From positions 101,868 to 145,058 of the forward strand of contig JAMCSX010000017.1 in the NCBI GenBank assembly GCA_023379055.1: 43,191 nt of DNA. Reading direction: 5' to 3'. The notes under the pieces are model-generated. The model had not been told where the DNA came from. It saw nothing but the letters and a program-made list of their open reading frames with translations, and made no database searches. Of the stretch, positions 39,320 through 43,191 are shown piece by piece (positions within the stretch are counted from its first letter, which is position 1; every line of letters starts with the position of its first letter). Source of the stretch: Candidatus Marsarchaeota archaeon. GTDB taxonomy: Archaea > Micrarchaeota > Micrarchaeia > Micrarchaeales > CABMGC01. The position numbers and the translations under genes are program-made.

Positions 39320-39378
39320 GCATATGTAGATTGGAAAGCAGAGTTATAAAGATTATTTGTAAGTAATAGCCTTATAAT

Positions 39379-39465
39379 GCAGGGATGGCGGAGCATGGTC
39401 AAACGCGACGGGTTCAGGGCCCGCTTCCTTTAGTGGATGCGAGAGTTCAAATCTCTCTCCCTGCA
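39379..39465 (+). tRNA. tRNA-Leu (anticodon CAG), class II with long variable arm; integration target
   Basis: Acceptor GCAGGGA/TCCCTGC, anticodon loop TTCAGGG (CAG, G37) and a variable stem-loop TCC-TTTAGT-GGA. The T arm is GAGAG-TTCAAAT-CTCTC and the discriminator is A. There is one A-C mismatch at the top of the anticodon stem. A TTATAAAG box lies about 32 nt upstream. Confidence 0.85.
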
Positions 39466-39468
39466 AAT
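39427..39468 (+). repeat. attL: 42-bp direct repeat (3' part of tRNA-Leu plus 3 nt)
   Basis: CCTTTAGTGGATGCGAGAGTTCAAATCTCTCTCCCTGCAAAT is identical to 43137..43178. Confidence 0.9.
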
Positions 39469-40276
39469 CCAATTTACGGCGACAAGCTAGGGTTCGGAAA
39501 TCCGAAAGGTAAATCTTCAAAGACCGAAGATTTCGAGGATTTCTCCGAAACCCTCAAGCAGGTGTCCATGAACAGATCATGGCACCAATTACAAAAGCTA
39601 CAATCAGTTTTACATAAAACTCAGACCAAGAGGTTTGCAGGTAAGAGGAAGACGCCGAAATATGGCTCAATCTCAAAGGCGTTTTCCGATTCGCAGCTTC
39701 AGAGATTCCTTCACGTAATAGACTCTGACAAGTTTCGCTTGCTATTCAGCTACCAAGCGCAGCTTGGGCTTAGAATAGGAGAAGCGGTCAGAGTCAATAT
39801 CAACTCAATAGACCTAGAAACGAGGGAACTTACCTTGAAGACCGAGAAGGCTCGGGTAATGGACTCGTTATTGATACCAATGCCGCTGTTCAAGGATACC
39901 ATAATCTTCATCTCGAAGCACAAGTCCAAGATCGAGAATGCGCAGGGGTATCTGTTCTATGCAGACAAGCTACGAACCAAGCGGCCTGAGCCGTTCCTAG
40001 AGCAAAACTACGTGCGCAACAGGTTCAGGCACTATGTGCGACTGGCGGGGTTGGACGAGGTATACGATACCTCAGACGAAACCAACCCTAACAGGAGCGT
40101 AAGGCAGGCACCTTCATAGGCTCACTACCCACAGCCTACGGCACTATGCCATAACCAGCTTCGCCAGGCAGACAAATGGCAATTTGGTGCTAACAAGCCG
40201 GTTCGCTAGGCATAGCGACCCTAGCACCACGATGATCTACATAAGCACTAGGAAAGAGGAGCTTTACAAGGGATAG
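39427..40276 (+). pseudogene. int: Tyrosine recombinase (integrase), Int(C) portion reading out of attL; also frameshifted near 40103-40116
   Basis: Frame 1 (to the TAG at 40117-40119) carries the first catalytic Arg region QLGLRIGEAVRV. The +2 frame from 40103 to 40276 reads RHLHRLTTHSLRHYAITSFARQTNGNLVLTSRFARHSDPSTTMIYISTRKEELYKG (HxLRH box, second His, catalytic Tyr). Confidence 0.8.
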
Positions 40277-40341
40277 ACAACGCCTTTGGCCTATCTCAAG
40301 CCCTAAGCCTGAAAGCTCGACTTTCCGGCACCTAAGCAAGC

Positions 40342-40491
40342 TTTCTCTACATGACTTGGGTTTCTCTACATGCCCAAGCCATTCCATGTAGAGAAAACCT
40401 CCCTCGTAAGCCCTCAAAATAGGGCTATTTTCTCTCTACATGACTGCACATCAATATTAGAGCCGTCCATGTAGAGTTTCATGTAGAGAAA
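40342..40491. repeat. Iteron-like cluster: six copies of (TTT)CTCTACATG in both orientations
   Basis: Forward copies lie at 40342-40353, 40361-40372 and 40428-40442 (the last is a variant, TTTTCTCTCTACATG). Reverse copies (CATGTAGAG(AAA)) lie at 40385-40396, 40468-40476 and 40480-40491. Confidence 0.8.
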
Positions 40492-40499
40492 CTCCCGCC

Positions 40500-40755
40500 T
40501 TGCAGCCTCCGCCCGCCTTTAAGACACCTTCGGTGTCGCACGGTGGGCTACGGCTGCTGCGGCTACTTTGTAGTACATGGCGGCGTTAAGGCTGATTTTG
40601 ACCCCCACGCAAAATCAGCCGCTTGCTAGGTGGCTAGCTTGCAGACCGTTGGGTCGTTAGCCCACGTGAGGAGCGTAGCTCTGAACGTGCTGGCGTAGCT
40701 AAAGGGTATGGGGTTTCCTTGAAGAAAAAGTCAGATGCTTAATACAGGAAGTCCA
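40500..40755. other. GC-rich non-coding block with stable hairpins (candidate ncRNA or origin-associated structure)
   Basis: No ORF is listed between 40418 and 40755. One sampled line (40501-40560) is about 67% GC. Hairpin 1 is GACACC-TTCG-GGTGTC (40523-40537). Hairpin 2 is GGCTGATTTTG-ACCCCCACG-CAAAATCAGCC (40590-40620). Confidence 0.5.
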
Positions 40756-41568
40756 TCACTTTACCGACTTCTTAGTAAGCGCTATGTAGTTTATTTTGCC
40801 CCATTCAAAATAGTAGTCTTTGCCCGATTCTCCATCTGAAATGCGAAGAGACTTACCTATAGAAGAGAGATAACCCTCTTTATCATCGACTTCGACAAGA
40901 ATCTTATTTTGTTTTTTAGATGCGAAGAGATCAAATATCTTATCCTGTATAGCCAGTTTGTCCGGAAGTATTCCCCTATAAATAATAACCTGTAGGAAAA
41001 TTAGATAAAAAGCTGAGACTACAGTACCAAGTATATCTTTAACTGCTTGAGGCGTCAGGTTGGCAAGCCCATTCGACAATAGTGCTATACCTGCACCTTG
41101 CATGTCTCCGAAATAAAGGAACATTAGAAAGCAGATGTAGAATATTGCTAATAGTAAGTTGTAGCTTTCCCTGAACCTGTACACAATAGTTTTTTCACTT
41201 TTTAGACTTTCGACCTTCATGTCCATTAATTTTGCTTCGATTAAAAGTACAAATAGCGAGCCGAATGTAGCCAAGAGTAAATAGTTATAGTCGCTGCTCT
41301 GAAAGAACTGTAACAGAATTAAAGCCAAAACTATGTAAATTCCTGCATTTACTAAGAACGGAATGTTCTCACTAGTGTAAATCTTATTGAATCTTTCGAA
41401 CTTTGATAGAAGAGTATCAAATTGTTTTGATGACTTTCTGATGGTATCAAGAGTTGCTTTACGCTGCCTTCCTTTTAAGAAGTAAACAAAATAAAAACTT
41501 AGAAGCGTAGCAACTAGCGGTATTCCAAAAATGCCTACCAATTCTAATACGGTTATCAAATCAACCAT
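40756..41568 (-). CDS. Element cargo: 5-TM membrane protein with about 70-aa soluble C-terminal domain
   Basis: Five hydrophobic helices, then KILVEVDDKEGYLSSIGKSLRISDGESGKDYYFEWGKINYIAL. It is AT-rich. The start is taken at ATG 41568 (MVDLITV...). The ORF opens at 41634. Confidence 0.6.
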   Translation of the reverse strand: MVDLITVLELVGIFGIPLVATLLSFYFVYFLKGRQRKATLDTIRKSSKQFDTLLSKFERFNKIYTSENIPFLVNAGIYIVLALILLQFFQSSDYNYLLLATFGSLFVLLIEAKLMDMKVESLKSEKTIVYRFRESYNLLLAIFYICFLMFLYFGDMQGAGIALLSNGLANLTPQAVKDILGTVVSAFYLIFLQVIIYRGILPDKLAIQDKIFDLFASKKQNKILVEVDDKEGYLSSIGKSLRISDGESGKDYYFEWGKINYIALTKKSVK

Positions 41569-41682
41569 GTGTATAATATCCACGTAAAAGTATATAACAT
41601 TTTTGAGGAGATGGAACACAGAGTTTAACAACAATCAAACTGAGCGCCAAAAGTTAAATATTAGTTTATTGTAGAATAAATC

Positions 41683-42969
41683 ATGTCAAATAATATCTTT
41701 GATTTTGCACCGCATGAATTAAATCACTCTGCTTTCTGGGCTTGGATATTAGCTAGTTTAAGCAAAGACAATCACAAGAATAAACAAAATGAAATAGGAA
41801 GAAGGATTGCAAGTAAGTTCTTAAAGAAAGTTGGGATTGACAAATCTGCAATAAAAAATATTAGTGTCGAACACCAAGCCTCCCCACTAACAAGTAAAAA
41901 CAGCGAAGGATCAACGTATGACATAAAAGCTGTGATTGAAGTAAAAAATGGTAAAAGTGTGTTTCTTGTTATAGAAACAAAAGTAAAAGCAAAAGCGGGG
42001 AGTGGGCAGCTAGAAAAGTACATCGGATATATCCAAAGAGAGTGTAAGGAAAAGCGACGTAAGGGTTATTTAATCTTACTAGATATTCAAGGCAAATCTC
42101 CACTTAAAGATAAAGAAAAAGAGGTACTCTATAAAGAAGCGAACAAGAAAGGAGTTGAATTCAAGATTTTTACTCCTGCTGACGTAATAGAAATCATAAA
42201 AGGGAATAAAAAAATTGATACGAAATATGATGGTTACCTTGTAAACAATTATATTGAATGGATTGAAGGTAACAAGGACTTTTGGGAGTATATATGCAAA
42301 GGCATAGTTTATGGAATTAGTGAAAAAGGAAATAAAAACATAAATGTAATTCGACCAAAGCGACACAAAGGGTGGGGATGGAAAGTAGAATCAAAAAAAG
42401 TTGGGATTGGAGAAGTTGGACTTATTTTTAAAGAGAATTCAAAGAAAGTGAAGATTGAATGTTGGTTTGGAGATGATTATACCCAGATAGAAGAGGTTTT
42501 CGAAAATCGGGAAACTATAAGAAGAAATCTTAAAAAATTAGAAGATAAAGGATGGAAAATCAAACCAAATCTATATTTCTGCACCTCTATAAATAAAAGA
42601 CATTATCCAGAGCAAATAGATTCGAATAATTGGGAAATGTATTTTGATATTTTATATGATTCAAAGGATGTTAAAAAAATAAAGTATTCTGCTGATGAAA
42701 TGGAAAAGAAGTTTCTGGAACTGGTAAGACGTGGTGCAATCAAAAATGTAGATGCTGAGGATGACACAAAGAGAAATGGCACTAGAAGTATACTAAAAGG
42801 CGATATTAAAAAAATTAGAAAACACCGAGCTACGCTGAAGCGAGGTATTGGAGCCATCTATGGCTATAAGACCCGTGATTTGTTAAACCCCAAAGAATTA
42901 AAGAAACTAAATTCAACGATAGCTAATAAAATCAATGAAGCTTTGGGCGACTTGCCAGATAAAAGCTAA
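41683..42969 (+). CDS. Element cargo: PD-(D/E)xK (RecB/Cas4-like) nuclease-domain protein with Lys-rich C-terminal extension
   Basis: STYDIKAVIEV...FLVIETKVKAKAGSGQLEKY gives D, E-x-K and QxxxY motifs in the canonical order. The protein is 428 aa and about 30-35% GC on sampled lines. Confidence 0.55.
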   Translation: MSNNIFDFAPHELNHSAFWAWILASLSKDNHKNKQNEIGRRIASKFLKKVGIDKSAIKNISVEHQASPLTSKNSEGSTYDIKAVIEVKNGKSVFLVIETKVKAKAGSGQLEKYIGYIQRECKEKRRKGYLILLDIQGKSPLKDKEKEVLYKEANKKGVEFKIFTPADVIEIIKGNKKIDTKYDGYLVNNYIEWIEGNKDFWEYICKGIVYGISEKGNKNINVIRPKRHKGWGWKVESKKVGIGEVGLIFKENSKKVKIECWFGDDYTQIEEVFENRETIRRNLKKLEDKGWKIKPNLYFCTSINKRHYPEQIDSNNWEMYFDILYDSKDVKKIKYSADEMEKKFLELVRRGAIKNVDAEDDTKRNGTRSILKGDIKKIRKHRATLKRGIGAIYGYKTRDLLNPKELKKLNSTIANKINEALGDLPDKS

Positions 42970-42975
42970 TTTAGG

Positions 42976-43000
42976 GTTCAGATTTAATGGAAATCTGAAC
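42976..43000 (+). terminator. Perfect 10-bp inverted repeat GTTCAGATTT-AATGG-AAATCTGAAC just after the nuclease-gene stop
   Basis: It was seen directly. A third half-site, GGTTCAGATT, lies at 43039-43048. It could act as a hairpin terminator or as an operator upstream of the Int(N) start. Confidence 0.4.
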
Positions 43001-43091
43001 GCTAGCTGCTTAAATAGATTGCTTGGCCATAATTTATGGTTCAGATTAACCTGCTTGGGCTTAGAATTTTATGTTGTTTTTGGTGTGAAAT

Positions 43092-43178
43092 ATGGTTAGG
43101 AATATAGGCGTGAAACAGCTAGGAAACACTCTCAAACCTTTAGTGGATGCGAGAGTTCAAATCTCTCTCCCTGCAAAT
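43092..43178 (+). CDS. Putative Int(N) fragment: ATG plus 15 codons reading in frame into attR
   Basis: ATG 43092 is preceded by an in-frame TGA at 43086. It reads MVRNIGVKQLGNTLK then PLVDARVQISLPAN, the same frame in which attL reads into the integrase body. Confidence 0.45.
43137..43178 (+). repeat. attR: second copy of the 42-bp repeat
   Basis: It is identical to 39427..39468. The sequence upstream (43100-43136) has no tRNA 5' half, so this is a duplicated tRNA 3' end and not a second gene. Confidence 0.9.
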
Positions 43179-43191
43179 TTAACAGAAGATA

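Follow-up and report, generated by a model that had tools for sequence, protein, structure and literature searches.

The window (the whole 43,191-nt stretch of DNA that was analysed, from assembly GCA_023379055.1 of a Micrarchaeota-type archaeon) carries near its right end a tRNA-Leu(CAG) gene, the body of a tyrosine integrase gene (int) and, at the far end of a 3.7-kb insert, a short open reading frame (ORF) that enters a second copy of the end of the tRNA gene. The insert is bounded by a 42-nt direct repeat that is 100% identical between its two copies (39427-39468 and 43137-43178). An exact repeat of this length is unexpected within 43 kb, indicating more than chance, and we refer to its copies as the left and right attachment (att) sites, attL and attR. 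The features at the two ends are as follows.

39378-39466, + strand: host tRNA-Leu(CAG) gene (ARAGORN; Rfam tRNA, 47.3 bits), intact after integration; its 3' 40 nt belong to attL
39427-39468, + strand: attL, the left 42-bp att copy, which reads PLVDARVQISLPAN in the int frame
39469-40335, + strand: Int(C), the tyrosine integrase body, a pseudogene
43092-43136, + strand: Int(N), the start codon and first 15 int codons, MVRNIGVKQLGNTLK
43137-43178, + strand: attR, the right 42-bp att copy, in frame with Int(N)

The left att copy is made up of the final 40 nt of the tRNA gene plus 2 nt. Read in frame with the ORF beginning at 39385, it leads directly into PIYGDKLGF...QLGLRIGEAVRV, the integrase body. 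At the other end a TGA (43086-43088) is followed by the ATG at 43092, and the frame opened there passes through the 15-codon stub into the same att peptide, in the same phase as at attL; it then continues into the 13 nt of host flank that lie inside the window and runs off the window end (..LTED). In the ORF rebuilt by joining the two ends, the att occupies codons 16-29. The right half of the insert has a G+C content (GC) of 0.33-0.34, compared with ~0.46 for its surroundings. A sequence-only reading of this DNA had proposed that the integrase ORF was partitioned by integration, with the att in the integrase frame at attL and the ATG at 43092 entering attR in that frame; all of its coordinates and peptides for these features are correct, and the apparent ORF start at 39385, inside the tRNA gene, is the artefact of the partition that it was taken for.

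We conclude that in this Micrarchaeota-type (DPANN) archaeon 39427-43178 is very probably a cryptic integrative element of 3.7 kb, which entered tRNA-Leu(CAG) in its 3' part, and that its int gene was split by the integration. The attP of the free element would sit at int codons 16-29, and its recombination with the matching 42 nt of the tRNA gene would restore the tRNA at attL. As the shortest blocks of attL/attR identity centre on the T-arm and the 3' acceptor strand, strand exchange may be placed there, most likely in the T-arm sequence GAGAG-TTCAAAT-CTCTC. The same event would part the first 15 codons, together with the GGTG-ATG start and the putative promoter of int (all at attR), from the body (at attL), producing the architecture known as type I or "suicidal". 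The empty attB would then read as the tRNA-Leu gene followed by TTAACAGAAGATA.

The partition is seen across a whole family of related loci. A search with the rebuilt protein yielded 616 relatives, and a scan of one genome per species gave 80 loci, nearly all of them in metagenome-assembled genomes (MAGs) of Candidatus Micrarchaeota and often several per genome. At most of the 80 loci a co-oriented tRNA gene abuts or overlaps the int start with its 3' end, and the tRNAs used as targets are Leu-TAG/CAG/GAG, Glu, Ala, Val, Pro, Gln, Asn and Asp. Of these loci, 25 had an identifiable second copy of the tRNA 3' part downstream (elements of 1.7-9 kb), and these were used to compare the phases. An ATG-started ORF passes through attR in the integrase phase at 21 of the 25 loci, whereas the second phase has such an ORF at 2 loci and the third at 0, indicating that the continuity of the frame at attR is not due to chance. 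The in-phase ATG was found across at least five tRNA-specific subfamilies. Thus, in the window and at about 21 related loci, the element has Int(N) at one end and Int(C) at the other. Seven other tRNA-Leu loci of Micrarchaeota MAGs have the Leu-subfamily stub, MARNIGVKQLGNTLK, at attR, and stubs are likewise kept within the Glu (M[KE]LE[NK]DDK) and Pro (MELEIDDK) subfamilies. The att-encoded residues vary with the target tRNA: they are those given above in the window and PLAGSRVQISPPAN or PLAPSRVQIS elsewhere.

Joined genes were also found among the relatives. P0001, a protein of 316 aa from an intact joined gene, starts with MARNIGVKQPGNTLKPLAGSRVQISPPAN and runs uninterrupted into the integrase body. 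In its DNA (locus L001) the upstream region is the same as the attR flank of the window, and no tRNA gene is nearby. More genes in which stub, att and body are joined occur at L196/L197 and L200, with a remnant in L198/L199. A protein search with the 62-aa N-terminus returned six candidates, of which three were joined forms and three were fusions of the stub with host sequence. The match of homologue N-termini to MVRNIGVKQLGNTLKPLVDARV, which the sequence-only reading had named as a check, is therefore present in P0001 as well as in the seven tRNA-Leu stubs at attR, and the placement of attP inside the int frame, with Int(N) at attR and Int(C) at attL, is borne out by these N-termini, the stubs and the joined genes. 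Other relatives open with translations of tRNA genes (MAEPGQTRRVQGPLPLVDARV..., MCRDGGAWSNATGLGP...); these are integrated copies that were over-extended by gene callers. Many database entries of 255 aa start at an internal Met, and the DNA upstream of them stays open and homologous. Homologues that truly begin at MNRSWHQ (39568), which had been named as the case against the partition, were not seen among them, the 255-aa entries being calls on integrated copies.

At several single tRNA genes the elements are arranged in tandem or nested arrays (L004, L005, L020, L023, L029 and L198/L199). In such arrays attR is directly followed by another Int(C), as expected of tandem insertion, or by only its first ~18 codons, which gives rise to hybrid or remnant joined genes. 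One joined gene lies on a small contig (L196, JGI Ga0373184_0047146, 3046 nt) together with an HNH nuclease gene and two small ORFs. Its int is unsplit and has a +1 frameshift in a T run. The two halves of a non-coding module (described below) lie at opposite ends of this contig, as expected of a ~3-kb circle or a tandem array, and there is no terminal overlap that closes the contig. L196/L197 is thus probably a circular or tandem relative of ~3 kb. A gapped DNA pattern for the joined (attP) form found none in viral or metagenome contigs, and a looser 19-nt Int(N) pattern gave 114 loci in metagenome contigs, all of them chance matches with no att nearby.

Although the 5' end of the window gene can be rebuilt, its body is broken. 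The Int(C) frame is open to a TAG at 40117-40119, a stop on which the sequence-only reading had not remarked; the catalytic segment 40112-40273 (HSLRH...RHSD...MIY) is read in the +1 frame, and after a second lesion the original frame returns and reaches a TAA at 40333-40335. The lesions were located in a DNA alignment of 12 correctly anchored relatives, from which the mis-anchored L003 was left out.

40103-40110, + strand: first frameshift, a 4-nt tandem duplication (GGCA|GGCA), absent from the 12 homologues
40271-40272, + strand: second frameshift, a 1-nt deletion; homologues read AAGGAGATAGAC and the window AAGG-GATAGAC

Both frameshifts are unique to the window copy among the aligned relatives, and both are also present in a second assembly (GCA_023484965.1, L202) that is 99.975% identical over 16 kb. 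Due to the two frameshifts, the window int is a pseudogene with HxxR, the second His and the catalytic Tyr out of frame. The statement that circularisation would rebuild a continuous gene thus holds for the rejoined 5' end and fails for the body, as joining the halves would not give a working gene. The window copy is presumably unable to excise itself and would be mobile only if a related integrase acted in trans. The decay would have come after the insertion. Frameshifts occur in other integrated copies, too (L011, L016), and the halves of split integrases are expected to be pseudogenes (PMC7253208). Taken by itself, the window therefore holds something modest, a dead cryptic element of 3.7 kb.

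We then considered how the N-terminal part of the protein is made. An AlphaFold model of P0001 was built with 109 sequences and had a predicted local distance difference test (pLDDT) score of 76; a model from 26 sequences (pLDDT 55) was not used. In the model residues 1-45 score below 50, helices span residues 48-84 and the catalytic domain scores ~90. The tail that is encoded by Int(N), the att and the next ~15 codons is thus predicted to be disordered. It is conceivable that translation starts only after this tail, at the internal Met (39568, MNRSWHQ; Met63), with attP in a 5' leader and the frame from the ATG at 43092 untranslated; integration would then detach the promoter and leave the coding sequence unsplit, in a type II-like manner. 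We regard this as improbable, even though some of the data weigh against a split coding sequence. While codon positions from Met63 on vary in the usual coding pattern in the Leu subfamily (0.049/0.030/0.195), those between the att and Met63 vary equally (0.091/0.136/0.131) with no excess at the third position, so that protein-level selection on residues 30-62 is not visible. In addition, a conserved AGGTG precedes Met63 in the Leu family (AGGTG-N4-ATG), and many gene calls, the 255-aa ones, start there; a late start would also fit the predicted disorder of residues 1-45. A late start, however, does not account for the in-phase ATG at 21 of 25 loci from at least five tRNA subfamilies against 2 and 0 in the other phases, nor for the conservation of both GGTG and ATG at the stub. 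The three gaps in the disputed segment are all of 3 nt, and the frame is open, with no stop, in 13/13 sequences. Outside the Leu subfamily Met63 is not conserved, yet the relatives still keep an open and alignable frame up to the att, and a start at Met63 would delete most of the predicted helix 48-64. We infer that the N-terminal tail is translated and that its sequence is set mainly by the needs of attP at the DNA level; it is predicted to follow the target tRNA rather than protein constraints. The residues DKLGF just after the att were considered as proof of protein conservation across subfamilies and were rejected, as they coincide with a repeated T-loop-like DNA motif, GGGTTCAAATC.

The split could also be less than fully suicidal: read-through from the tRNA gene might express the body from Met63 or from an ATG inside the tRNA, yielding a truncated integrase that is active and excises the element. 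This would fit with the tRNA gene being always co-oriented and directly upstream, with a frame that is open back into the tRNA in many copies (e.g. MAEHGQTRRVQGPLPLVDARV in the window and in P0003/P0011), with the conserved Shine-Dalgarno-like AGGTG before Met63 and with a loss limited to the predicted disordered tail. We nevertheless hold it to be unlikely, because truncated SSV-type integrases are reported to be inactive (PMC8371274) and because frameshifts are found in many integrated copies (the window, L011 and L016), as expected without selection; in the window the catalytic part is out of frame regardless. Finally, the repeat and the short ORF could be a coincidence or an assembly artefact made from mis-joined tRNA-derived repeats. 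The window ends 13 nt past attR, leaving the right host flank and the empty site outside it, and two other assemblies of the same population break here, at 39407 and 40502. An artefact is hardly credible given that the order tRNA-att-Int(C)...Int(N)-att is found at about 25 loci that were assembled independently, several of them inside contigs of 100 kb-1 Mb, that the attL side is reproduced in L202 and that the element has a composition of its own. The end of the window just past attR counts against the split interpretation, too; in addition, no closed circular form was recovered, and L001, which sits 515 nt from the end of a chromosome-like contig with host-like genes downstream, could be a tandem junction or an assembly join. 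Integration that splits int at codons 16-29 remains the reading that we prefer.

To which family does the integrase belong? The window protein matches PF00589 (E=2e-11). Of the family, 26 members were scanned; every one of them hits PF00589 and none hits PF16795, even with E allowed up to 10. The catalytic set R131, K156, H249-S-L-R252 (HxxR), H276 and Y285 is invariant or nearly so in 109 relatives. The family therefore carries the catalytic residues that define the tyrosine recombinase superfamily (PF00589); in the window HxxR, H and Y are in the shifted frame. A profile search of PDB sequences found only XerA (two entries; the best 4a8e, E=3e-5) and 3nkh, a bacterial integrase. The P0001 model has XerA, IntI, XerH, Cre and the lambda, P2, HP1 and Tn1549 integrases among the 50 best Foldseek matches listed. 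SSV1 Int was absent both from the PDB sequence search (E up to 1) and from these 50 matches. By sequence and fold together, the nearest structures are XerA, IntI and XerH. A tblastn search with P0001 found no relative in sequenced phages or archaeal viruses and a single marginal match in a plasmid. The suicidal integrases of SSV, pTN3-like and pT26-2-like elements belong to PF16795, form one monophyletic group and are described as a feature of hyperthermophiles; the SSV1 type has the signature R..KxxR..Y and pNOB8-type enzymes R..YxxR..Y (PMC8371274). As the window family is PF00589 and not PF16795, has HxxR and not KxxR and has XerA, IntI and XerH as its nearest structures, it is not of the SSV family. 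The enzyme would act in the manner of an SSV-type integrase although it is no member of that family, and it is a classical R-K-HxxR-H-Y recombinase of PF00589 with a Xer-like fold, as predicted by the model. The label "SSV-type" given by the sequence-only reading hence fits the split architecture and the attP inside int, and does not fit the enzyme. In the comparison of SSV-type with pNOB8-type integrases that it had called for, neither side applies: PF16795 and KxxR set the former apart, and YxxR and a separate attP the latter.

The likeness to SSV1 and SSV2, fuselloviruses of Sulfolobales, lies in the attP within the int ORF, the tRNA 3' target, the int(N) and int(C) at opposite ends and the decay of the halves (PMC8371274, PMC7253208). 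While the SSV enzymes are of PF16795 with R..KxxR..Y, the window family is of PF00589 with R..HxxR..H..Y; its stub outside the att has only 15 codons and belongs to a tail that is predicted to be disordered, the host, a DPANN archaeon, comes from acid-mine-type metagenomes and is not a hyperthermophile, and the window element is without viral genes. With pTN3 and pT26-2 of Thermococcales and Archaeoglobales the family shares a self-splitting gene, a wide spread through a single host lineage in which many copies have decayed, switches of tRNA specificity between close relatives and tandem or hybrid int genes (PMC7253208). In contrast to it, those integrases are of the PF16795 superfamily, described as monophyletic (PMC8371274), and their carriers, replicating plasmids or viruses, have 10-20+ kb, compared to the 1.7-9 kb measured here. 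NitEve-E3 of Thaumarchaeota is likewise a small cryptic integrated element of a non-thermophilic archaeon whose integrase is split on integration (PMC6563490), but this integrase is described as SSV1-like (PMC6563490), which the window family is not. XerA and the classical PF00589 enzymes (lambda-like, type II pNOB8, SNJ2) have the same catalytic domain with the full R-K-HxxR-H-Y set. There, however, attP or dif is separate from the gene, which survives recombination, and the N-terminal core-binding domain is larger, whereas in the window family only a two-helix hairpin (48-84) is predicted before the catalytic domain. The pNOB8 type further differs in having YxxR where the window family has HxxR, and its ORF does not contain the att as the ORF here does.

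Self-splitting integrases have been presented as an archaeal peculiarity, made up of one monophyletic family in geothermal or hyperthermophilic hosts (PMC8371274, PMC7253208). In the literature searched, split integrases were not described for Micrarchaeota or any other DPANN archaea. Systems of this kind are known; the lineage of the integrase, its range of hosts and the shortness of its stub seem to be new. We tentatively propose, at somewhat less than even odds, that the window holds a decayed member of an apparently undescribed self-splitting, Xer-like lineage of PF00589 outside the PF16795 clade, which would be pervasive in Micrarchaeota (several copies per genome), would use at least 8 tRNA species and would, in most of the closest tRNA-Leu and tRNA-Glu loci, be coupled to a ~400-nt non-coding module. 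If this were true, gene-splitting integration would have arisen at least 2 times and would not be tied to hyperthermophily, and the lineage would represent a family of minimal integrative elements, possibly helper-dependent satellites. A second, unrelated-looking family in non-thermophilic DPANN would show that the arrangement is convergent or far more widespread. As the split removes no more than a stub of 15 codons and a tail predicted to be disordered, the family would offer a simple test case in which the cost of the split to the enzyme and the means by which such elements persist can be addressed. Annotation is affected, too: integrated copies are now called as integrases of 255-330 aa, with false starts inside tRNA genes.

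Among the targets, tRNA-Leu(TAA)-like genes lie ~100 nt upstream of int at L013, L016, L018, L019 and L024 and contain an extra insertion of ~20 nt in the region of the D-arm (ggcagagcctggtctggcttaacggccacagaaaaacgcgcagg...). These genes are without an ARAGORN call, yet they are integration targets like other tRNAs. One further locus, L077 (DATJLP010000011.1, tRNA-Asn), has the split-type layout in a MAG labelled Candidatus Acidoferrum sp. We set it aside as a bacterial case, as the contig is probably mis-binned (GC 0.43, Micrarchaeota-like tRNA-Asn); a genuine bacterial origin would make it the first example from outside the archaea.

The DNA to the left of the stub is conserved as DNA over ~170 nt upstream of the ATG, including a hairpin, a TTAWATA box, a palindrome and GGTG. 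These and the neighbouring elements are:

42970-43091, + strand: int upstream control region, which stays behind at the element's right end; its DNA sequence is kept in seven attR flanks and in the joined gene of L001
42972-43004: hairpin GGTTCAGATTT..AAATCTGAAC
43010-43017: TTAWATA box, here TTAAATAG, conserved, ~75 nt upstream of the ATG
43038-43051: near-palindrome GGTTCAGATTAACC
43053-43067: GCTTGGGCTTAGAAT
43065-43072: AATTTTAT box, which varies among relatives
43082-43085: GGTG, conserved, 6 nt before the ATG
43086-43088: TGA

The AATTTTAT box that the sequence-only reading had noted upstream of the ATG is indeed present. As a promoter it is not conserved among relatives, and it appears to be a weaker candidate than the conserved TTAWATA box, downstream of which int transcription is predicted to begin. 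The exact 15-nt GCTTGGGCTTAGAAT occurs twice, at 39762-39776 within int (LGLRIGE codons, including the catalytic Arg) and a second time shortly upstream of the ATG of Int(N). Relatives such as L001 have kept both copies, and a chance match between two regions this short is unlikely. In the Leu subfamily three copies of the T-loop-like GGTTCAGAT lie upstream of the stub (42972-43051 in the window), and the T-loop-like motif already mentioned occurs two to three times inside the N-terminal coding stretch of the Glu subfamily (L030, L050 and L056, just past the att). These repeated motifs are candidate accessory binding sites for the integrase that would mimic the core.

Between the int body and the control region lie a non-coding module, directly after int, and two cargo ORFs.

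40340-40495, no strand: non-coding module part 1, an invariant AT-rich stretch surrounded by six CTCTACATG/CATGTAGAG 9-mers that occur in both orientations
40496-40740, + strand: non-coding module part 2, GC-rich, with hairpins kept by compensatory changes
40756-41634, - strand: cargo ORF of 292 aa, hydrophobic and membrane-like, no family match, in the low-GC part
41683-42969, + strand: 428-aa cargo ORF whose N-terminal domain is a PD-(D/E)XK nuclease (PF14281), with weak PADLOC matches to PDC-S26 (candidate defence)

The module (~400 nt) accompanies int in most of the closest tRNA-Leu and tRNA-Glu loci and is found, for example, at L001 1475-1786, L032 10953-11344 and L033 11494-11853. Its nucleotide identity is 77-93% across about two dozen loci, which include Glu-subfamily elements whose integrase has ~55% protein identity, indicating that the module is better conserved than the integrase. 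The consensus fold of part 2 has 51 pairs, 14 of them with compensatory changes, and the module has no match in Rfam. It may be an origin, a non-coding RNA gene or a mobilisation site. The low GC of 0.33-0.34 is that of the cargo half (40756-42969), while the host and the int module have about 0.46, and the cargo could be a defence gene that came from elsewhere. No record turned up for the cargo protein in a look-up, and the window element contains no recognisable replication gene.

Three assemblies of the same population break at the element or its edge: Logan L201 in the tRNA gene (39407), the NCBI MAG L202 in the 9-mer module (40502) and the window itself at 43191, 13 nt past attR. These recurrent breaks are consistent with sequences that are repeated in the genome or community. 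As for the host, the arginyl-tRNA synthetase in the window is 44-50% identical to proteins that carry the names Micrarchaeota, Micrarchaeia or Micrarchaeaceae, its best match being another protein at 70%, and a GTPase gene lies near tRNA-Leu(CAG) both in the window and in two Micrarchaeota loci.

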